Shown here in pieces: positions 2,869 to 11,290 of a stretch of DNA of 24,140 bases (positions are counted from its first letter, which is position 1; the number at the start of each line of letters is the position of its first letter). The DNA is from a virus (Duplodnaviria; Heunggongvirae; Uroviricota; Caudoviricetes), in IMG/VR virus record IMGVR_UViG_2713896901_000009, positions 1-24,140 of that record. The stretch is one strand, 5' to 3'. The translations under genes were made by a program, and so were the position numbers. The notes under the pieces are model-generated. The model made no database searches. It was not told the DNA's origin and saw only the letters and a list, made by a program, of their open reading frames with translations.

Positions 2869-3792
2869 TCAGTAGTTATGTACTGAAGGAGGCAATTCTT
2901 TATTCTTAAGTCTCATCCATGCGGAAAGATTCGTTGGTCCGTCTGGCTCATTGATATCAACATCTCGTGTGTGGTTGATTAAAACGTCTCTCGCCATTCC
3001 GATAACATACGAGAACTCATGACCGTAGTCGTAGCATCTGCCGGAATAGTTCGATTGAATTTGTTTTAATGCCGGATACAGTTCGCGGAATAATGCCTGT
3101 GAACGGTTGGCATAATCCCATAACCATACAAGGCTGTTTGCTTCTTTTGCAGAAAGCTCGTTGGTTTTCTTCTCTTGTTTTCCAATGAACTCACCTTCAA
3201 GTGGAACTCGAGCTGCAAGTGATAGTGCTTCGGTAAACTGCTCCTCACTGATTTCTTTGTACGAACATCCAAAATGGGATTTTAGTGACGACCACATGGT
3301 GATCATCGCCTTAGCCTGTTTTTCTTTTGGCAGAGACTGACCGCGACTCATGACGAGTTGTTTAATGGCTTCCTGCTGTTCAGTGGTGATTTTCCCCGGC
3401 AATGCCTTTTTAGCTTTGCGCGGGTTAATCACATGGCCTTTAGTCCAGTACTCGTAGAGCACATCGTCACACTCTTCCTGATACTGGATTACCTTGTCGC
3501 GGATTTCAGGGCGGACTTTGTTAGGACTGATGGTTTGCAGCCAGCCATTCAGTTTACGCAAAGCAAGGCAAATCATGGTCTGCACACCACCAACTGAAGG
3601 TATTGCGATTTCCACAATACCTTTAGCAAATCTTTGTTTTAACTTTGTAAACTGTGAAGCCCAATCCATACCCATGCCTTCAACGATAGGTTTCATTGGG
3701 GTATACGGTTCGCCGTTGTGATTGACGACATAAAGCTCTGCGCCGTGGAATGGCACGTTGATAGTAGATACTGCTGTTGCTATACTTTTCAT
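2869..3792 (-). CDS. ant: Antirepressor (Ant-like)
   Basis: 307 aa, ATG at 3792, directly downstream of the arc-like gene and upstream of tailspike, the P22 immI position of ant. The N-terminal region ([11 protein letters not shown]...[13 protein letters not shown]) resembles antirepressor N-terminal domains. Domain assignment is from memory. Confidence 0.65.
3758..3786 (+). promoter_or_regulatory. Candidate sigma70 promoter antisense to the ant 5' end (Psar-like)
   Basis: TTGATA (3758-3763), 17-bp spacer, TATACT (3781-3786). The predicted start near 3793 is directly opposite the ant start codon. Confidence 0.4.
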
Positions 3793-3860
3793 GTCAGTTT
3801 TTCCTCAAAATTTACTGGCGATTTAAGCCCGAGCTACTCGCAATAGCTTGGGCTTTACTC
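3793..3860 (+). ncRNA. Candidate sar-like antisense RNA covering the ant ribosome-binding site and start
   Basis: From the promoter above to a 12-bp stem-loop (AAGCCCGAGCTA / TAGCTTGGGCTT, 3825-3855) followed by TTTACTCATT. About 65-70 nt, the same size, position and orientation as P22 sar RNA. On the minus strand the hairpin has no U-tract, so arc-ant read-through is allowed. Confidence 0.4.
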
Positions 3861-4005
3861 ATTCTGGACAAACAATTCCATCCTTAGCTACTGACTCCTT
3901 TAGTCTCCTCAATACCTCATTACTGAACGACCGATCATCCTTTTTCGCGGACTGCTCCAAAGCCTTTTCCAGCCATTCTGGCATCCTTAATGTCTTAACT
4001 TTCAT
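3859..4005 (-). CDS. arc: Arc-like ribbon-helix-helix repressor (48 aa; below the ORF-track size cutoff)
   Basis: ATG at 4005 with AAGGAG 5 nt upstream, TGA at 3859-3861. Translation MKVKTLRMPEWLEKALEQSAKKDDRSFSNEVLRRLKESVAKDGIVCPE carries the Arc/Mnt RHH signature (LRMP ... RSxSNEV..RL.ES). Confidence 0.8.
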   Translation of the reverse strand: MKVKTLRMPEWLEKALEQSAKKDDRSFSNEVLRRLKESVAKDGIVCPE

Positions 4006-4023
4006 TTTTGCTCCTTTGTATGT

Positions 4024-4073
4024 GGTACGCATACATAGTATTTAGGTACGCATTGATAGTCAATAGATACCTA
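4024..4073. promoter_or_regulatory. Operator-like repeats in the arc/mnt divergent control region
   Basis: Direct repeats GGTACGCAT at 4024-4032 and 4045-4053 (21 bp apart, flanking the -10 of the arc promoter). A 31-bp imperfect dyad TAGGTA...ATTGA-TAG-TCAAT...TACCTA at 4043-4073 overlaps the -35. Confidence 0.45.
4035..4063 (-). promoter_or_regulatory. Candidate promoter for arc-ant (Pant-like)
   Basis: Minus strand TTGACT (4063-4058), 17-bp spacer, TACTAT (4040-4035), about 30 nt upstream of the arc ATG. Confidence 0.45.
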
Positions 4074-4109
4074 CATATCCTGTGGTAAAAAATTATTCAG
4101 GATGCGCCG

Positions 4110-4361
4110 ATGTCTGATCGTAAGTACAAAAACCCTCAAGTGAATCTGAGGCTTCCTGTAGAGATAAAGGAGCGTCTTATTGAACTAGCTGAGGCTAATT
4201 CTCGTTCATTAAATGCTGAGATGGTCGCAGCACTTGAAGCATGGACCGAAAAAAACAAACACATTCAAGCACTAGATCTTGCAACTATAGCATCGCGACT
4301 GATAGAGCTTGAGCATGATGTTGAGAAGTTAAAATGTATGCATGGCAATGGTGAAAAATGA
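4110..4361 (+). CDS. mnt: Mnt-like ribbon-helix-helix repressor
   Basis: 83 aa. The N-terminus PQVNLRLPVEIKERLIELAEANSRSLNAEMVAAL matches the Arc/Mnt RHH fold pattern. Divergent from arc as in P22 immI. Confidence 0.8.
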   Translation: MSDRKYKNPQVNLRLPVEIKERLIELAEANSRSLNAEMVAALEAWTEKNKHIQALDLATIASRLIELEHDVEKLKCMHGNGEK

Positions 4362-4675
4362 AACGTATCGCTATCCTATTGCTCCTGTGTCTCTCGAGCA
4401 TAGCTAACGCAGAAACAAAATCAGACGATAGCAGTTTTGATGAAATACAAGGCCTCATGATAGCTTCGAAAATGGCTGGTATGTGTGGTGCAATCAAACA
4501 AATGGCAATATTCCAAGAATCTACAAACATGCCGGGTGGGAATGAATTCTTACAGAGATTCCTTACTACAGAGCAAGCAAGGCTTGGGATGACTCCGCAG
4601 CAATTTCTTGAAGCATGTCAGAAATCAATCTCTATTTATACCACCTATTACAATATGAGCTCTGAGAAAAAATAG
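4358..4675 (+). CDS. Small secreted protein of unknown function, translationally coupled to mnt
   Basis: 105 aa. ATG overlaps the mnt stop (ATGA). Sec-type signal peptide MKRIAILLLLCLSSIANA with AxA site; mature part has two Cys. No family recognised. Confidence 0.6.
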   Translation: MKRIAILLLLCLSSIANAETKSDDSSFDEIQGLMIASKMAGMCGAIKQMAIFQESTNMPGGNEFLQRFLTTEQARLGMTPQQFLEACQKSISIYTTYYNMSSEKK

Positions 4676-4684
4676 ACTAGGATC

Positions 4685-4870
4685 TCAACAGCTTCCGCGT
4701 CCCTGAGTAATTCTGTTGCGGATTTGCTTCTTGCGGTGGTTTAGGCTGGAGAGCTTGGCTTCTGCTTCTGATATTTGCGCATCCAAATCTTTTAGTTCAA
4801 GATCTGAAAGGCGCTGGTCAAGCAGGGTTTGGTTTAACTCAATGTTGTTCAGACGTTCTTCTATAGTCAT
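4685..4870 (-). CDS. Hypothetical small coiled-coil protein
   Basis: 61 aa, ATG at 4870 with AAGGT 7 nt upstream; heptad-like Leu/Glu-rich sequence. Lies on the late-transcript strand. Weak. Confidence 0.3.
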   Translation of the reverse strand: MTIEERLNNIELNQTLLDQRLSDLELKDLDAQISEAEAKLSSLNHRKKQIRNRITQGRGSC

Positions 4871-4895
4871 ATTGTTACCTTAGTGGGAGATTAGT

Positions 4896-5120
4896 ATGAT
4901 TTCTGCTATTTTATCGGTGCTGCTAGCGTCATTATTCATCGGAGTGGTGTTGATCTCCCCGATGCCAATAATATCAATATTATTCATCTTGATGATCGGC
5001 TGGTTGTGGCTTAAAAAGGCAAGAAACGATTATTTTTTATCCATAAGAGATAAGCAATTGGAGCTTTTCCGCTTGGGGTACACTGGCGACTTGCCATTCT
5101 TAACATACCAAAAAAAGTAA
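4896..5120 (+). CDS. Small two-transmembrane-helix membrane protein
   Basis: 74 aa. GGGAGA 5 nt upstream of ATG. Two hydrophobic segments (ISAILSVLLASLFIGVVLI and IISILFILMIGWLWL), basic C-terminal tail. Followed by an intrinsic terminator. Confidence 0.55.
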   Translation: MISAILSVLLASLFIGVVLISPMPIISILFILMIGWLWLKKARNDYFLSIRDKQLELFRLGYTGDLPFLTYQKK

Positions 5121-5126
5121 TAATCA

Positions 5127-5149
5127 AGCCGGGTCACTCCGGCTTTTTG
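5127..5149 (+). terminator. Rho-independent terminator after the 74-aa membrane-protein gene
   Basis: AGCCGG-GTCACT-CCGGCT followed by TTTT, 7 nt after the stop. It overlaps the last codons of the convergent minus-strand gene. Confidence 0.6.
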
Positions 5150-5499
5150 ATATGTCGCTCGCAGAACTCAACAAGCCTGCTCATTAAGTAGCAGTAAGTC
5201 TCATTGGCTCTTCCTGGTTCAACATCAACGCCGACCCTTGAGCAGATATCGAATGCCATGTGAGCGCACTCATGGGCAATAGTAGATAGTTTGCCATTGA
5301 ACACGCCTATCACATGCAAAACACCATTCTCGCTACTCATTGTATGAGACGCTCCGTTGGCGTCCGAGTCATGCACGTCCACGCCAAGTTTTTGATGCAG
5401 GCGTTGCCATTCTGGAAAGTCTCTGCAAAACACAATTGTACCGCTCTCAAAGAGCGGAACAAGCATTTTTGGTACGTTTCCAATGTTAACTTTTTTCAT
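5134..5499 (-). CDS. HExxH-motif protein, possible small zinc metallopeptidase (ImmA/IrrE- or SprT-like)
   Basis: 121 aa. Motif KLSTIAHECAHMAFD (H-E-x-x-H), with a further Glu/Tyr cluster (ETYCY) downstream. Start is ATG at 5499 with AGGA 4 nt upstream. Family assignment is tentative. Confidence 0.45.
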   Translation of the reverse strand: MKKVNIGNVPKMLVPLFESGTIVFCRDFPEWQRLHQKLGVDVHDSDANGASHTMSSENGVLHVIGVFNGKLSTIAHECAHMAFDICSRVGVDVEPGRANETYCYLMSRLVEFCERHIKKPE

Positions 5500-5529: not shown

Positions 5530-5736
5530 GTGAAGCGATTGATTGTAGGGCTTGCTGTAGTTGCTTTTTTTATCTTCTCGGCTTCGACTGGTTACGGAGT
5601 TAGATTCTCATCATCAACAATCAACGATAAGATTGAATGCAGATACATAAGCGTTTCCGGCAAATTCTCCAGAAATTACTGGTATTCAGATAATGGAATC
5701 ATGGGTATTAGCAATTGCCCTTTATTTGACAGATAG
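5530..5736 (+). CDS. Small protein with N-terminal signal/anchor sequence
   Basis: GTG at 5530 preceded by AAGGAGG at 5-nt spacing. 68 aa with hydrophobic N-terminus KRLIVGLAVVAFFIFSASTG. The ORF-track upstream extension is antisense to the HExxH gene and looks non-coding. Confidence 0.45.
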   Translation: MKRLIVGLAVVAFFIFSASTGYGVRFSSSTINDKIECRYISVSGKFSRNYWYSDNGIMGISNCPLFDR

Positions 5737-5793: not shown

Positions 5794-7950
5794 TTATTGC
5801 ATTTTGGGTTGGTCGTCACTGGCTGTAGTCTCTTGCTGAGATAACCATGTGATAAACCCCGTGCGAGCAATAGTTTTTGCTTCATCTGTTGATAGGGTTT
5901 TCTCCCATCTCTTAAATGCATTAGATCGCATCAGCTTCCTTTCTATTACGCGTCTCACTTCTGCTCTGTCTACTGGTGCGTTTTGCAGGCGAAATAGCAT
6001 TGATTTAAACTCAGGAGAGGACAGTAGAGCATCAGCAGCCTTTATCCTGCTTGTTTTCCCTGACATCAATGCAGCCGATATTACCCCTGAAGCACCTGCT
6101 CCCAAAAGGCCAAATGAGCTTGTAATTCCTTCCGCCGCAATAGCTTTTGAGGCTATTCCATAAATTTTTGCGAGACTACCCTTTTCTTTCAGAAAGTTAT
6201 TAACTTGCTGATCCACAAGGCTACTAGCATACTGCTTACCAGTATTGAGTCTATTCATAGCCTTAGCTGCTTGATAAATCGTATCAAGGCGCTTTGATGC
6301 ATCTGTGCCAATAGCATCACGGAGAGCCTTCATATTGGCCCCATTGCGTGACATTCCGTTATACCATTTTACAAATCCATCAACTCCTAATTGCTGACCA
6401 GGTGATTTGGCATAGCTGGTAAATGCTTTATTCATTGAGGTGAGCGCAACTTCCTGCCGCATATCCTTTGGAATCGACTTCATTAATTGCCTAAAGTCGC
6501 CACCGTTTCCTTTTGCCATATTAACAACAGCACTTTCAACTTTTGGAATTGCTGATTGCTGAAGTTTTCTACCCAAGACGGTTACAGCATCATCTTCAAT
6601 TGATTTTCGTTTTTTTACCAACTCCTTACCAAGCGTCCATAATTCCCCTGCGCCATATTTTTCTGCGACAGCCTGTTGGTCATCTGTTATGGCTGCATAT
6701 AACTTTTTAAGAACACCTGTTTCTTCATCCTTGAATGGACCAGAGCCTTTGCCAATAGCTTGTCCAACCTGCTTTCTAGCGAGATCTAAACGCCCATACG
6801 TTGGCAAGGTGTTTGGATCAAGTCGGTTCAATGTCCGCTTCATTATTGGAGATAATTCATCAATTCCACCTATGTCATCAGCAAAATCCTCTAAAAAATT
6901 CAATGTATTAGTTGCCTCAATCCGGTCTCTTACAGGAACCTTTTCGGCAATTTTGTTGTAGATGTTATCTGACTGATTTTGTAATGATGAAATGGTTTTA
7001 TCAAAATTATCTGCAAGCCTGTCAGAAACCAGTTGCTTATCAAGGTTTCCCCCAAATGAAGTTATCATTTCATCAGCTTTTCTTCCTAATTCAGTAATAA
7101 AACGCTTATGCGCCTCACTAATCTCTGTTCCAGGGAGACTTGCCACTGCATTATCAAGAGCTCTGACAGCAGGATTATTAGAGATCATGCCTGGAGTGGC
7201 ATAATTTTCCAGTTCTAGCTCACGAATAGCATTTATCGCGTTAAAATCAGGATTAACTTCATCGGCGAAATCTTGAATAGCTCGTTGCCCACCAATAAAT
7301 TTATTATCCATTGCACCAGCAGCTTTCTTTAACGTTGCTTTAGATGATTTACTGCCCATCCCTACGGATGAGCGATAAATATCTCCGGCACTATTTTTAA
7401 TTTTTCCTGCAATCTTCCCAAGCGCTGGACCAACAATCTCGGCTACAGGGCCAGCCACAGCGCCAATAGCAGCGCCGGAAGCAACATCGCTATTTGTTCC
7501 ATTGGCTACAATAGCCCCTTCTCCAGCACCAAGCCCTGCGGCGGCAGCCAGCCTTGCCGCCCCTTTCGGAACCTGAGAAATAATCCCACCACCACTAACA
7601 AATGGCGCTGCTTGTCCAACGAACTCACCAACATCTTGTGCGGTTGATGGTTTTGCCGCTAACTTCTGCTGTAGAGACTGAATTGCGGCTTGCTCTTCTG
7701 GTGTCATATCCTGAAACAGGCCAACACCTTTACCAACATCCATCAATCCACTGAGAACGCCATACATAAAACGGTCGAAACCGTTAGCATTATTAACAAC
7801 ATTTTCCTGTCTGGAATTTTCCCCTGGTGAAACCAAAGGTGATTGCTGCTGTTCTGGTTGGGCATCAAGCACAAAACCATCAGGAAGCTGTGAGTTATCA
7901 GGCTGTTCATCCAGAACAAACCCCTCTGGTAAACCTACATTGGTTGCCAT
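5794..7950 (-). CDS. Ejection (internal virion) protein, P22 gp16 position
   Basis: 718 aa, Ala/Gly-rich. Last of the three ejection-protein genes in P22 order; overlaps the gp20 stop. Confidence 0.8.
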
Positions 7951-9986: not shown

Positions 9987-10445
9987 CTATCTCCCGTGAT
10001 TCAGGAAGTCGATTAGTTCTTCGCGTGTAGCGCTGTAAAACGTCACGTCATCCACGCCTTTGAAGTATTTCTTGATAGTTCCCACACGCTTAAGGCCAAT
10101 CATTGCGCAGTACATCTGCCCGTGGCGGAATTTGCGTGCAGCGAACGATGTGACGCACTGAACGGTGGTGTTAGTCAGAATGTATCGCCAGAACGCCAGC
10201 CCGATTTCCTTGCTGAATCCACGAACCTCTGGCAGGTACATGGCGTGGCAATCGAATGTCAGCGGCTGAATCTCCTGATAGTAAACAATGCCGCCGAACT
10301 GCCCGTGCACGTTCACCTCAAAGTAACGGCAATCAGGTTTGTAGTCGTATCCATCACCGTTGTTGCTCCCGGCAATAATGTCAGGGTGATTTCCGACTGC
10401 TTCGATCAGGTCGATGTTTCGCGTTGGTTTGAACTGAATCATCAC
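9987..10445 (-). CDS. Virion assembly/ejection-associated protein, P22 gene 14 position
   Basis: 152 aa between tail needle and gp7. Start overlaps the needle stop (ATGA). Assigned by synteny only. Confidence 0.6.
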
Positions 10446-11290
10446 TGCTCCGCGATTATCTTGATGGTTGTGGCAGTAAACGCCGCACCATTTGACTGGA
10501 TGGTTAACGTACTGCCATTTGTGGCAAGAAAGCCGTCTTTATCCACGCTGAAAAACGTAGCTAACAGGATGTTATCGGTCGTTGTCGCCGCATTACGACT
10601 GCTGACCAGTGTGTCAGGAACAGAGCCGGAAAAGGTTAGCTGCATTGACCTGTTTGCGGTTCCGCTGGGCCACGTCCCAACAATCGACAGCTTGAAGAAC
10701 ATGGTTTTGTTCTCGTTGAACACAACCATCTTGTTGTTAACGGTGTCGAAGAATGGTGCCAACGTGCCGGATGACGGCGTTAGCGTTTTCAGCAGGCTAA
10801 CAAGATTGGTCGGCGCTGTCGGGATGGTTACAGATACGCCAGAGTAAACAACCTCTGACTTCTTGCGAGTAGTGGCATACTCCAGAGCATCGATGCGCGT
10901 TTCATGGTCTGAAACCTGCGACTCCAGCAACTGAACTCTTGTGTCAAGCGACGAAATATCGCTTTCATTCTGAGCTATTCGTGTTTCATGGTCCTGAAGA
11001 GTTGATTCTGCCTGGCTGATTCGCTCCTCATGATTAACAAGCGTTGCTTCCGCAGCAGAAATTCGCTGCTCATGGTCAGCGAGAATCACATCCTGCTCAT
11101 CGTTCCTGACTTGTGCGTCATAAGCGCCCTGTCCGGCCTCGTTGGCCTTGTTCGCCACGTTACCAACATCAGTACCCTGTGCGATAACGTACAGCAGATA
11201 TGACTGCGAGAAGATATTGCGTGGAAGGACTGATGTGTCGAGCCGTGTAGCCTGAATGATTACCGGCACATTGAGATTCGAATCCGCCAT
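10442..11290 (-). CDS. Tail needle (gp26-like) with C-terminal knob domain
   Basis: 282 aa. N-terminus [43 protein letters not shown] matches the P22 gp26 plug domain. Central heptad repeats ([36 protein letters not shown]). About 120 extra C-terminal residues as in knob-bearing needles (Sf6 type). Confidence 0.85.

Follow-up and report, generated by a model that had tools for sequence, protein, structure and literature searches.

The gene orf105 lies in a 24,140-nucleotide (nt) stretch of DNA from a virus of the class Caudoviricetes (IMG/VR record IMGVR_UViG_2713896901_000009, positions 1 to 24,140; hereafter the window), directly behind a gene for a repressor resembling Mnt of phage P22. 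We read it as a lysogen-expressed accessory gene (a "moron") of the mnt operon, whose product of 105 amino acids (aa) is predicted to reach the periplasm and to protect the lysogen there; the chances that this account is right as a whole, protective role included, seem to us about even. The position of the gene is that expected of mnt-operon cargo: it is on the strand of mnt, between mnt and the homologue of gene 16, and downstream of a divergent pair of candidate promoters corresponding to Pant and Pmnt. The locus is the immI region of a P22-like prophage, a region named "ant moron" by Casjens and colleagues, which is highly variable among P22-like phages and contains several genes of unknown function (PMC2629481). 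It is also a known hotspot of genes for envelope proteins that lysogens express, sieA among them.

The preliminary description of this DNA had stated that the start codon of orf105 overlaps the stop codon of mnt, and the overlap is indeed there: the ATG (4358-4360) and the TGA of mnt (4359-4361) have two bases in common within a 4-nt overlap, and positions 4350-4361 read GGTGAAAAATGA. The same ATGA recurs with four Mnt sequence types (designated "w", "k", "c" and "s") in Escherichia coli, Citrobacter freundii, Serratia marcescens and one further locus, and the orf105 homologues found at it are 41-98% identical to the window protein (single values are 72%, 65%, 68% and 41%). A 4-nt overlap by itself is not special, others being present elsewhere in the window (e.g., 9987..10445 with 10442..11290), and its weight lies in its conservation. 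Moreover, in Kapi1-type prophages an unrelated gene of 69 aa is joined to mnt by the same ATGA. Because the joint recurs with several Mnt types as well as with this unrelated gene, the end of mnt is, as far as can be judged from the sequences, a conserved and reusable attachment point for different cargo genes. In P22 and some of its relatives mnt ends in a hairpin and the next gene follows about 100 nt later.

The identification of the upstream gene as Mnt-like also holds. Its product matches the Arc domain of Pfam (E = 3e-10), its best match in the PDB is the P22 Mnt repressor (1MNT), and it shares with P22 Mnt its position, its length of 83 aa and 42% identity over the ribbon-helix-helix part. 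A scan for promoters and terminators found no promoter-like or terminator-like site between mnt and orf105; since, in addition, the genes overlap, it is very likely from this layout that the two are on a shared transcript. Co-expression of orf105 with mnt is accordingly a reading that we consider probable, and the conservation of the joint across genera fits expression from the mnt promoter. Further downstream, positions 5112-5200 are 100% identical to P22 DNA annotated "terminator; t mnt", and there is no terminator-like site from 4675 to 5126. As nothing resembling a terminator precedes the retained t_mnt hairpin, the mnt transcript would probably run through orf105, antisense over a 61-aa open reading frame (ORF) of the late strand and across a 74-aa ORF, and end at t_mnt.

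The product of orf105 had been described as secreted, and its sequence bears this out. The N-terminus (MKRIAILLLLCLSSIANA followed by ETK) is of the Sec/signal peptidase I type, with an n-region MKR, a 12-residue hydrophobic core IAILLLLCLSSI and the residues A-N-A before E19; the same kind of N-terminus is present in 87 of the 93 GMCG-bearing relatives that were checked, and the GenBank record of phage Kapi1 carries the DeepTMHMM call "signal 1-22" for its orf105 homologue. Across the family, the 20-30 N-terminal residues vary in sequence and stay hydrophobic and signal-like. Judging from these features, it is very probable that orf105 encodes a real exported protein. A lipoprotein was considered and rejected: there is no lipobox, the only cysteine of the signal region (C11) is preceded by L-L-L, with Leu at position -1, and it is not conserved, being replaced by F, S or G in relatives. 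In one family member (P0006), a Kapi1-type signal peptide and N-terminus stand on a window-type mature region, a mosaic that indicates recombination inside the gene between two prophage lineages.

That the 105-aa ORF might not be a functional gene at all is extremely improbable. There is no curated family, function or expression record for it, which would suit such a reading, whereas the ratio of nonsynonymous to synonymous substitution rates (dN/dS, Nei-Gojobori) is 0.05-0.20 for the mature part, as opposed to 0.2-1.0 for the signal region, and indicates strong purifying selection. Full-length orf105 is carried by 54 of 5,426 complete E. coli genomes (about 1%) and is intact in all 54; the lineage of the O104:H4 outbreak of 2011 carries a variant with 77% identical DNA. 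The orf105 of the window is matched at 100% and 99.7% DNA identity in E. coli WP4-S18-ESBL-08 and ETEC4068, respectively. Frameshifted or truncated copies were met in three of 11 close clusters, each of the three having a single member. Together with the roughly 300 clusters that share invariant residues and a confident structure model, this conservation effectively refutes the idea of a spurious reading frame, as far as sequences can do so.

The family itself is undescribed. In the PHROGs library, orf105 belongs to phrog_19844 (E = 1.1e-69, with residues 1-105 aligned to all 105 positions of the profile), which is the only library family that contains it and has no functional annotation; no match was found in Pfam, NCBIfam or PADLOC (in PADLOC, 0 families at E up to 0.1), and no papers were found in the literature for the protein accession or the PHROG number. 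Word-seeded searches gave 11 close clusters and, with a profile, 273, and an exhaustive profile search of 1.84 billion representatives raised the number to 308 (E <= 0.001). Nearly all of these clusters are single-domain proteins of about 100 aa without fusions to other domains; apparent fusions were rejected, as the longer members are mis-called starts, and three members with two matched stretches (174-208 aa) have the size of tandem copies. In a Pfam scan of 111 family members there were only scattered matches, with E of 0.009 or worse.

Across these 111 sequences G41, C43, F52, Q53, M58, G61, F64, R67, E72, R75 and C87 are invariant, and K38, Q48, T56, D62 and T71 nearly so. AlphaFold2, run with the deep alignment, gave a model with a predicted local distance difference test (pLDDT) score of 87.9 (95-98 in the core) and helices at residues 24-56, 61-76 and 80-103. 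Since C43 and C87 are invariant cysteines in a protein predicted to be periplasmic, they presumably form a disulfide bond there. A profile search of the PDB by sequence gave no match at E up to 10, and a fold search with the model gave no significant structural match among known folds.

In 44 P22-like loci with a relative of orf105, the region is put together from cassettes in various combinations: mnt is followed by orf105 or the 69-aa gene, by optional small genes and, in a second slot beside the gene of gp16 type, by orf105 or a 68-aa gene; after this slot comes the gene for a lipoprotein of 161 aa, for a SieA type-B-like protein or for a Rap1a immunity protein of the type VI secretion system (T6SS). 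At every P22-like locus examined, members of the orf105 family share the strand of mnt and are thus antisense to the late operon. Those in the second slot have a strong Shine-Dalgarno motif of their own (TAAGGAGG) and a GTG start, and for this reason the family does not, to judge by these copies, need mnt.

Several of the accompanying genes deserve a description of their own. In the window, the second slot is occupied by a 68-aa ORF (5530-5736, plus strand) beside the gp16-type gene, with the strong Shine-Dalgarno motif (TAAGGAGG), a GTG start, two cysteines and a signal-like or membrane-anchor N-terminus (VKRLIVGLAVVAFFIFSAS...), and without any family match. The DNA for its Shine-Dalgarno motif, its start and its first residues nearly coincides with that of the Kapi1-type orf105 homologue found in the same slot of other prophages, so that only the gene body appears to have been swapped between them. 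A SieA type-B-like protein co-occurs with an orf105 homologue at locus L007. At locus L014, a T6SS immunity gene of Rap1a type (4329-4676, plus strand; Pfam PF18602, E = 5.3e-17; with a signal peptide) lies directly after the mnt-coupled orf105 homologue and looks like an orphan interbacterial-immunity gene carried as prophage cargo. The 161-aa lipoprotein (lipobox LAGC, Gln-rich centre) often follows an orf105 homologue (L011, 4341-4826, plus strand; L099, 2355-2840, minus strand); its copy in prophage Gally of E. coli LF82 (GALLYPH_13) stands at about 70 in a published expression table, well above the median of about 16 and just below the value of 78 from which the authors recognise morons.

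Outside complete P22-like prophages the settings are varied. In Methylophaga sp. 41_12_T18 (L005, 2022-4361) the orf105 relative is an integron cassette: it is the second ORF downstream of an integron integrase, which was confirmed by TIGR02249 (427 bits, the cutoff being 265), and an attC-like repeat of 30 nt stands after the gene (4332-4361) and again at 5176-5205. In Tenebrionibacter-like genomes, the orf105 relative is found beside a 254-aa gp16 fragment, the prophage being otherwise lost, and in the remnants at L006 (3986-5196) and L023-L025 (5001-6211) only these two are left between host housekeeping genes, which suggests that the small gene was kept after phage decay. Further carriers are a Yersinia island remnant, other phage types and variable regions with HEPN, NERD or antitoxin genes, as well as marine and environmental bacteria and the chromosome of a Sulfurimonas. 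In the latter (L022, 4609-5312), the orf105 relative has a GTG start that overlaps the stop of an upstream 131-aa gene by 4 nt, and a CMD/AhpD-like gene follows. When the 176 ORFs that neighbour the gene at 25 non-P22 loci were compared all against all, no conserved partner emerged, no family being present in more than two loci; because no partner gene is kept across such varied settings, the protein probably acts alone.

Taken together, these observations lead to the following account. From the mnt promoter, one mRNA would be made over mnt and orf105, probably on to the t_mnt hairpin (5126-5145); ribosomes that end mnt at its UGA would restart at the overlapping AUG, aided by the weak Shine-Dalgarno motif. 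The precursor would then be exported by Sec and cut after Ala18, a step strongly indicated by the sequence, and C43 and C87, in line with their invariance, would form a disulfide in the periplasm. There, the 87-aa three-helix protein might work alone, by binding or neutralisation, and so protect the envelope of the lysogen, which is a guess from context, as is the most likely target, namely something that comes from outside, for instance a superinfecting phage's apparatus for ejection or cell-wall degradation. This protective step is the weakest part of the account, and a protective or exclusion role, taken on its own, is rather doubtful: as every library and fold search was negative, the function has to be read from context alone. 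That context consists of the neighbours (SieA, lipoproteins and Rap1a) and the strand of expression, which point to a lysogen-expressed protection of the envelope. In P22-like prophages, sieA lies between genes 16 and 9, and SieA blocks the injection of DNA (PMC10883804).

A number of observations weigh against this account, at the levels of translation, promoter output and target. The place of GGTGA is taken in relatives by AAGGA or GGAAGG, a Shine-Dalgarno-like GGTGA or AAGGA precedes the ATG in every junction type compared, and the folding of five junction types revealed no RNA structure at the mnt/orf105 joint beyond shuffled controls (z-scores of -0.5 to +1.5); as the motif is present and no structure sequesters the start, translation of orf105 may begin without that of mnt. 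Regarding the promoter, RNA-seq of a lysogen of Kapi1, whose Mnt type and coupled gene both differ from those of the window, found mnt below the detection threshold in LB or simulated intestinal fluid (PMC12922286), for which reason the mnt promoter may yield very little product in laboratory conditions. The P22-type mnt of prophage Gally in E. coli LF82 is induced 40-fold inside macrophages (PMC9928086); Gally was rejected as a proxy for expression, and its induction does not transfer to the window, because its promoter region, which belongs to a P22-type Mnt, is unrelated and orf105 is lacking. With regard to the target, one specific to P22-type ejection proteins is unlikely because the family spans marine and environmental bacteria, integrons and the Sulfurimonas chromosome. 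In addition, about a dozen polar residues are invariant or nearly so in family members as distant as those of Sulfurimonas and E. coli, which suggests that a target or ligand has been conserved, and such conservation is unusual for fast-evolving exclusion or immunity proteins.

The claim that any cell making the repressor also exports the orf105 protein has thus to be divided. A shared operon is very likely, given the overlap and the lack of any site in between, whereas a dependence of orf105 on mnt is not implied, in view of the Shine-Dalgarno-like motif and the lack of structure; expression in any Mnt-making cell is something that we infer from the layout. Translational coupling is nevertheless plausible, as the overlap by which coupled pairs are recognised is present in the ATGA at 4358-4361 and is kept in four Mnt types.

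Another way of looking at the joint is to consider it a product of genome compaction and a reusable recombination point, with no regulatory meaning. According to this explanation, orf105 would be co-transcribed with mnt and translated from its own ribosome-binding site, and it would be paired with Mnt only because the mnt promoter is the sole lysogeny-active promoter in the region. The Shine-Dalgarno-like motif upstream of the ATG in every junction type and the unsequestered start codon agree with it, and so does the mosaic breakpoint at the mnt stop codon, where the annotators of CUS-3 mark a "boundary sequence" and where many E. coli matches break off (window positions 4348-4361). The unrelated 69-aa gene at the same joint, the family members with their own Shine-Dalgarno motif and GTG start in the gp16 slot, and the 4-nt overlaps that are common elsewhere in the window can be added to these. 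On the other hand, the joint is kept even though both partners have diverged greatly, the homologues down to 41% identity, which suggests selection on the arrangement, and the window has a weak Shine-Dalgarno motif at a distance of just 3 nt from the ATG. We regard compaction as a serious possibility, of somewhat less than even probability.

A different explanation of the protein itself is that it is an orphan immunity-type protein directed against a toxin that acts in the periplasm (a T6SS amidase or muramidase, a bacteriocin or exogenous lysozyme), so that it would guard the cell against competitors and not against phages. Orphan immunity genes are often carried singly, as is this gene on integrons, prophages and variable regions; the protein is small, helical, predicted to be periplasmic and provided with two cysteines, and at L014 the Rap1a gene directly follows an orf105 homologue. 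No effector gene or recurrent neighbour was found, however, at the approximately 25 non-P22 loci examined, there are no Pfam or PDB matches, and the profile similarity to Rap1a does not go beyond the signal peptide (hhalign probability 17%), all of which makes this explanation unlikely. Identity with Rap1a/Tai4 (PF18602) as such was rejected, there being no Pfam match and the hhalign alignment with the L014 protein covering the signal peptides only (17%). SieA (PF26849) was likewise rejected, because none of the 111 members has a Pfam match and the sole hydrophobic segment is the signal peptide.

It has also been considered that orf105 alters host physiology, as a stress or chaperone-like factor, a binder of a ligand or metal, or an inhibitor of a conserved periplasmic enzyme, with an effect on fitness or virulence. 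That Q53, R67, E72 and R75 are invariant, and others nearly so, in Sulfurimonas and E. coli alike speaks for a conserved target, and the Sulfurimonas gene is chromosomal and adjoins the CMD/AhpD-like gene. Nonetheless, the gene neighbourhood is not conserved, the motif LTTEQ is not a feature of the family (its consensus is TExAR), no Pfam match exists, and Met42 and Met49 are not invariant, which weakens a Met/Cys metal site; such a role therefore strikes us as distinctly improbable. Among the specific candidates, the LTXXQ proteins CpxP and Spy were rejected, given that only T71 and E72 of the window's LTTEQ (69-73) are conserved in the family, and a Met/Cys copper site lost weight through the variation at M42 and M49.

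Returning to a protective protein, a broader version of the favoured account would make the whole family a new, stand-alone class of periplasmic protective proteins, which mobile elements such as temperate phages and integrons would have spread through Gamma-, Beta- and Epsilonproteobacteria, and which in one P22-like lineage would be wired to Mnt through the ATGA and hence produced for as long as the prophage persists. Its members would act against a conserved attacker of the envelope, for which a phage ejection or cell-wall-hydrolase apparatus and an interbacterial toxin are candidates. This generalisation is speculative, and we would give it a low probability.

The coordinates of the features discussed are collected in Table 1. 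The window as a whole corresponds to the late region of a prophage of the P22-like (Lederbergvirus) type, whose late operon is on the minus strand. Encoded on this strand are homologues of gp7 and gp20, which are ejection proteins, and a 718-aa protein at the gp16 position; farther on, it carries the Arc-like gene, the Ant antirepressor gene and a gene for a head-binding tailspike. The order ant (minus), arc (minus), mnt (plus), orf105 (plus) and, farther on, the gp16-type gene (minus) is common to the window and all P22-like loci examined. In a close relative the arc-like gene is annotated "Arc family DNA-binding protein", with a shorter, 46-aa start. Between arc and mnt, the promoter scan found TTGATA-17-TATCCT on the plus strand (4053-4081; candidate Pmnt) and TTGACT-17-TACTAT on the minus strand (4063-4035; candidate Pant), and an inverted repeat with 18-nt arms (4039-4077) is the candidate operator. 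This layout is that of the annotated Pant, Pmnt and operators of P22, and the sequence of the candidate promoter/operator region is identical in relatives with the same Mnt type.

Table 1. Coordinates, strand and basis of the features in and around the mnt-orf105 region of the window.
Feature	Position	Strand	Basis or remark
ant-like antirepressor gene	2869..3792	-	Pfam P22_AR_N E = 4.9e-45, P22_AR_C E = 5.8e-30
arc-like repressor gene	3859..4032	-	Pfam Arc E = 2.3e-05
Divergent, overlapping promoter-like sites (candidate Pant, minus; candidate Pmnt, plus)	4035..4081	.	Consensus matches only
mnt-like repressor gene, 83 aa	4110..4361	+	Ribbon-helix-helix; divergent from arc and ant as in P22
Shine-Dalgarno-like GGTGA	4350..4354	+	Inside mnt coding sequence; ends 3 nt before orf105 ATG; weak
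orf105, 105 aa	4358..4675	+	ORF list; first start codon in frame after a stop is 4358
ATGA, orf105 start overlapping mnt stop	4358..4361	+	Conserved in L007, L011, L014, L026 and others
Predicted signal peptide of orf105, residues 1-18, MKRIAILLLLCLSSIANA	4358..4411	+	n/h/c regions and A-x-A site read from sequence
Mature orf105 (87 aa, three predicted helices, invariant C43 and C87) plus stop codon	4412..4675	+	AlphaFold2 model, alignment, dN/dS
74-aa ORF, two predicted membrane-spanning segments	4896..5120	+	Probably last gene before t_mnt (tentative)
Terminator hairpin, counterpart of t_mnt in P22	5126..5145	+	Terminator scan; probable 3' end of mnt transcript

Two small ORFs lie between orf105 and the terminator. 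The 61-aa ORF of the late strand (4685-4870, minus) encodes a coiled-coil protein belonging to phrog_7586, with weak XhlA-like matches, and it ends 9 nt from the orf105 stop, so that the two genes are convergent. The 74-aa ORF has its own promoter-like site (4872-4900), and Pfam, PHROGs, NCBIfam and PADLOC contain nothing that matches it; one P22-like locus besides the window was found to carry it. At the gene-16 position, the 718-aa protein (5794-7950, minus strand) lacks the match to Pfam Phage_P22_gp16 that the 614-702-aa versions of its relatives have, and the ejection-protein slot of P22-like prophages is thus occupied by at least two very different proteins.

The preliminary description had seen in this arrangement a link between a lysogeny regulator and a periplasmic effector. 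To take it for a special functional tie would overstate its significance, since an accessory gene in a repressor operon is a familiar prophage layout and the protein also occurs without mnt and outside phages. The layout itself is ordinary and current concepts are unchanged by these findings; their interest lies in an undescribed, widely mobile family of small, predicted periplasmic proteins, together with the conserved joint through which cargo is attached behind mnt, which exemplifies how mosaic phages exchange accessory genes at a fixed point. If the protein were protective, it would add a soluble periplasmic component to the envelope defences that P22-like prophages confer on their hosts (SieA, O-antigen modification and lipoproteins), and a family so far undescribed, with members in prophages, integrons and environmental bacteria, would acquire a function. 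A phenotype of orf105 would also bear on medically relevant strains, because the carriers, about 1% of complete E. coli genomes, include the O104:H4 lineage of the 2011 outbreak.

Several known systems can be compared with this one. In phage lambda, the accessory genes rexA and rexB are co-transcribed with the lysogeny repressor gene cI and expressed in every lysogen. The products of rexAB are a cytoplasmic and a membrane protein that form an abortive-infection pair, whereas orf105 encodes a single predicted exported protein. Genes 44 and 45 of phage epsilon34, which lie behind a repressor, have been compared to rexAB (PMC2629481). SieA is encoded by a prophage gene of the same genomic region as orf105 and shares with its product the envelope as its site, as predicted for the latter; nevertheless, SieA, with its 160-200 aa or so, spans the membrane several times and has the motif FxRYPxEAxxFNK (PMC10883804), while orf105 is without this motif and would be soluble after the predicted cleavage. 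The Rap1a/Tai4 proteins are, as is predicted for that of orf105, small and periplasmic, with a signal peptide and cysteines, but the similarity ends with the signal peptide. The T4 protein Spackle (Sp), likewise of about 100 aa and equipped with a signal peptide, works in the periplasm, where it inhibits the tail lysozyme and so blocks superinfection; it is made in lytic infection, not from a prophage repressor operon. It is the closest functional analogy for the role proposed here; no PDB entry, Spackle included if it is deposited there, matched orf105 by sequence, and Spackle is absent among the fold matches listed. The nearest parallel in layout is the immI region of P22 (AF527608), which occupies the same site between gene 16 and the tailspike gene, has the same divergent arrangement of arc-ant and mnt, and carries a small gene, orf59a, between mnt and the same t_mnt terminator. 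Unlike orf105, orf59a does not overlap mnt, from which a hairpin and a distance of 99 nt separate its start; it also lacks a signal peptide and is unrelated in sequence. In P22 as in the window, the gene content of this region is variable and mosaic, and in P22 sieA adjoins it.

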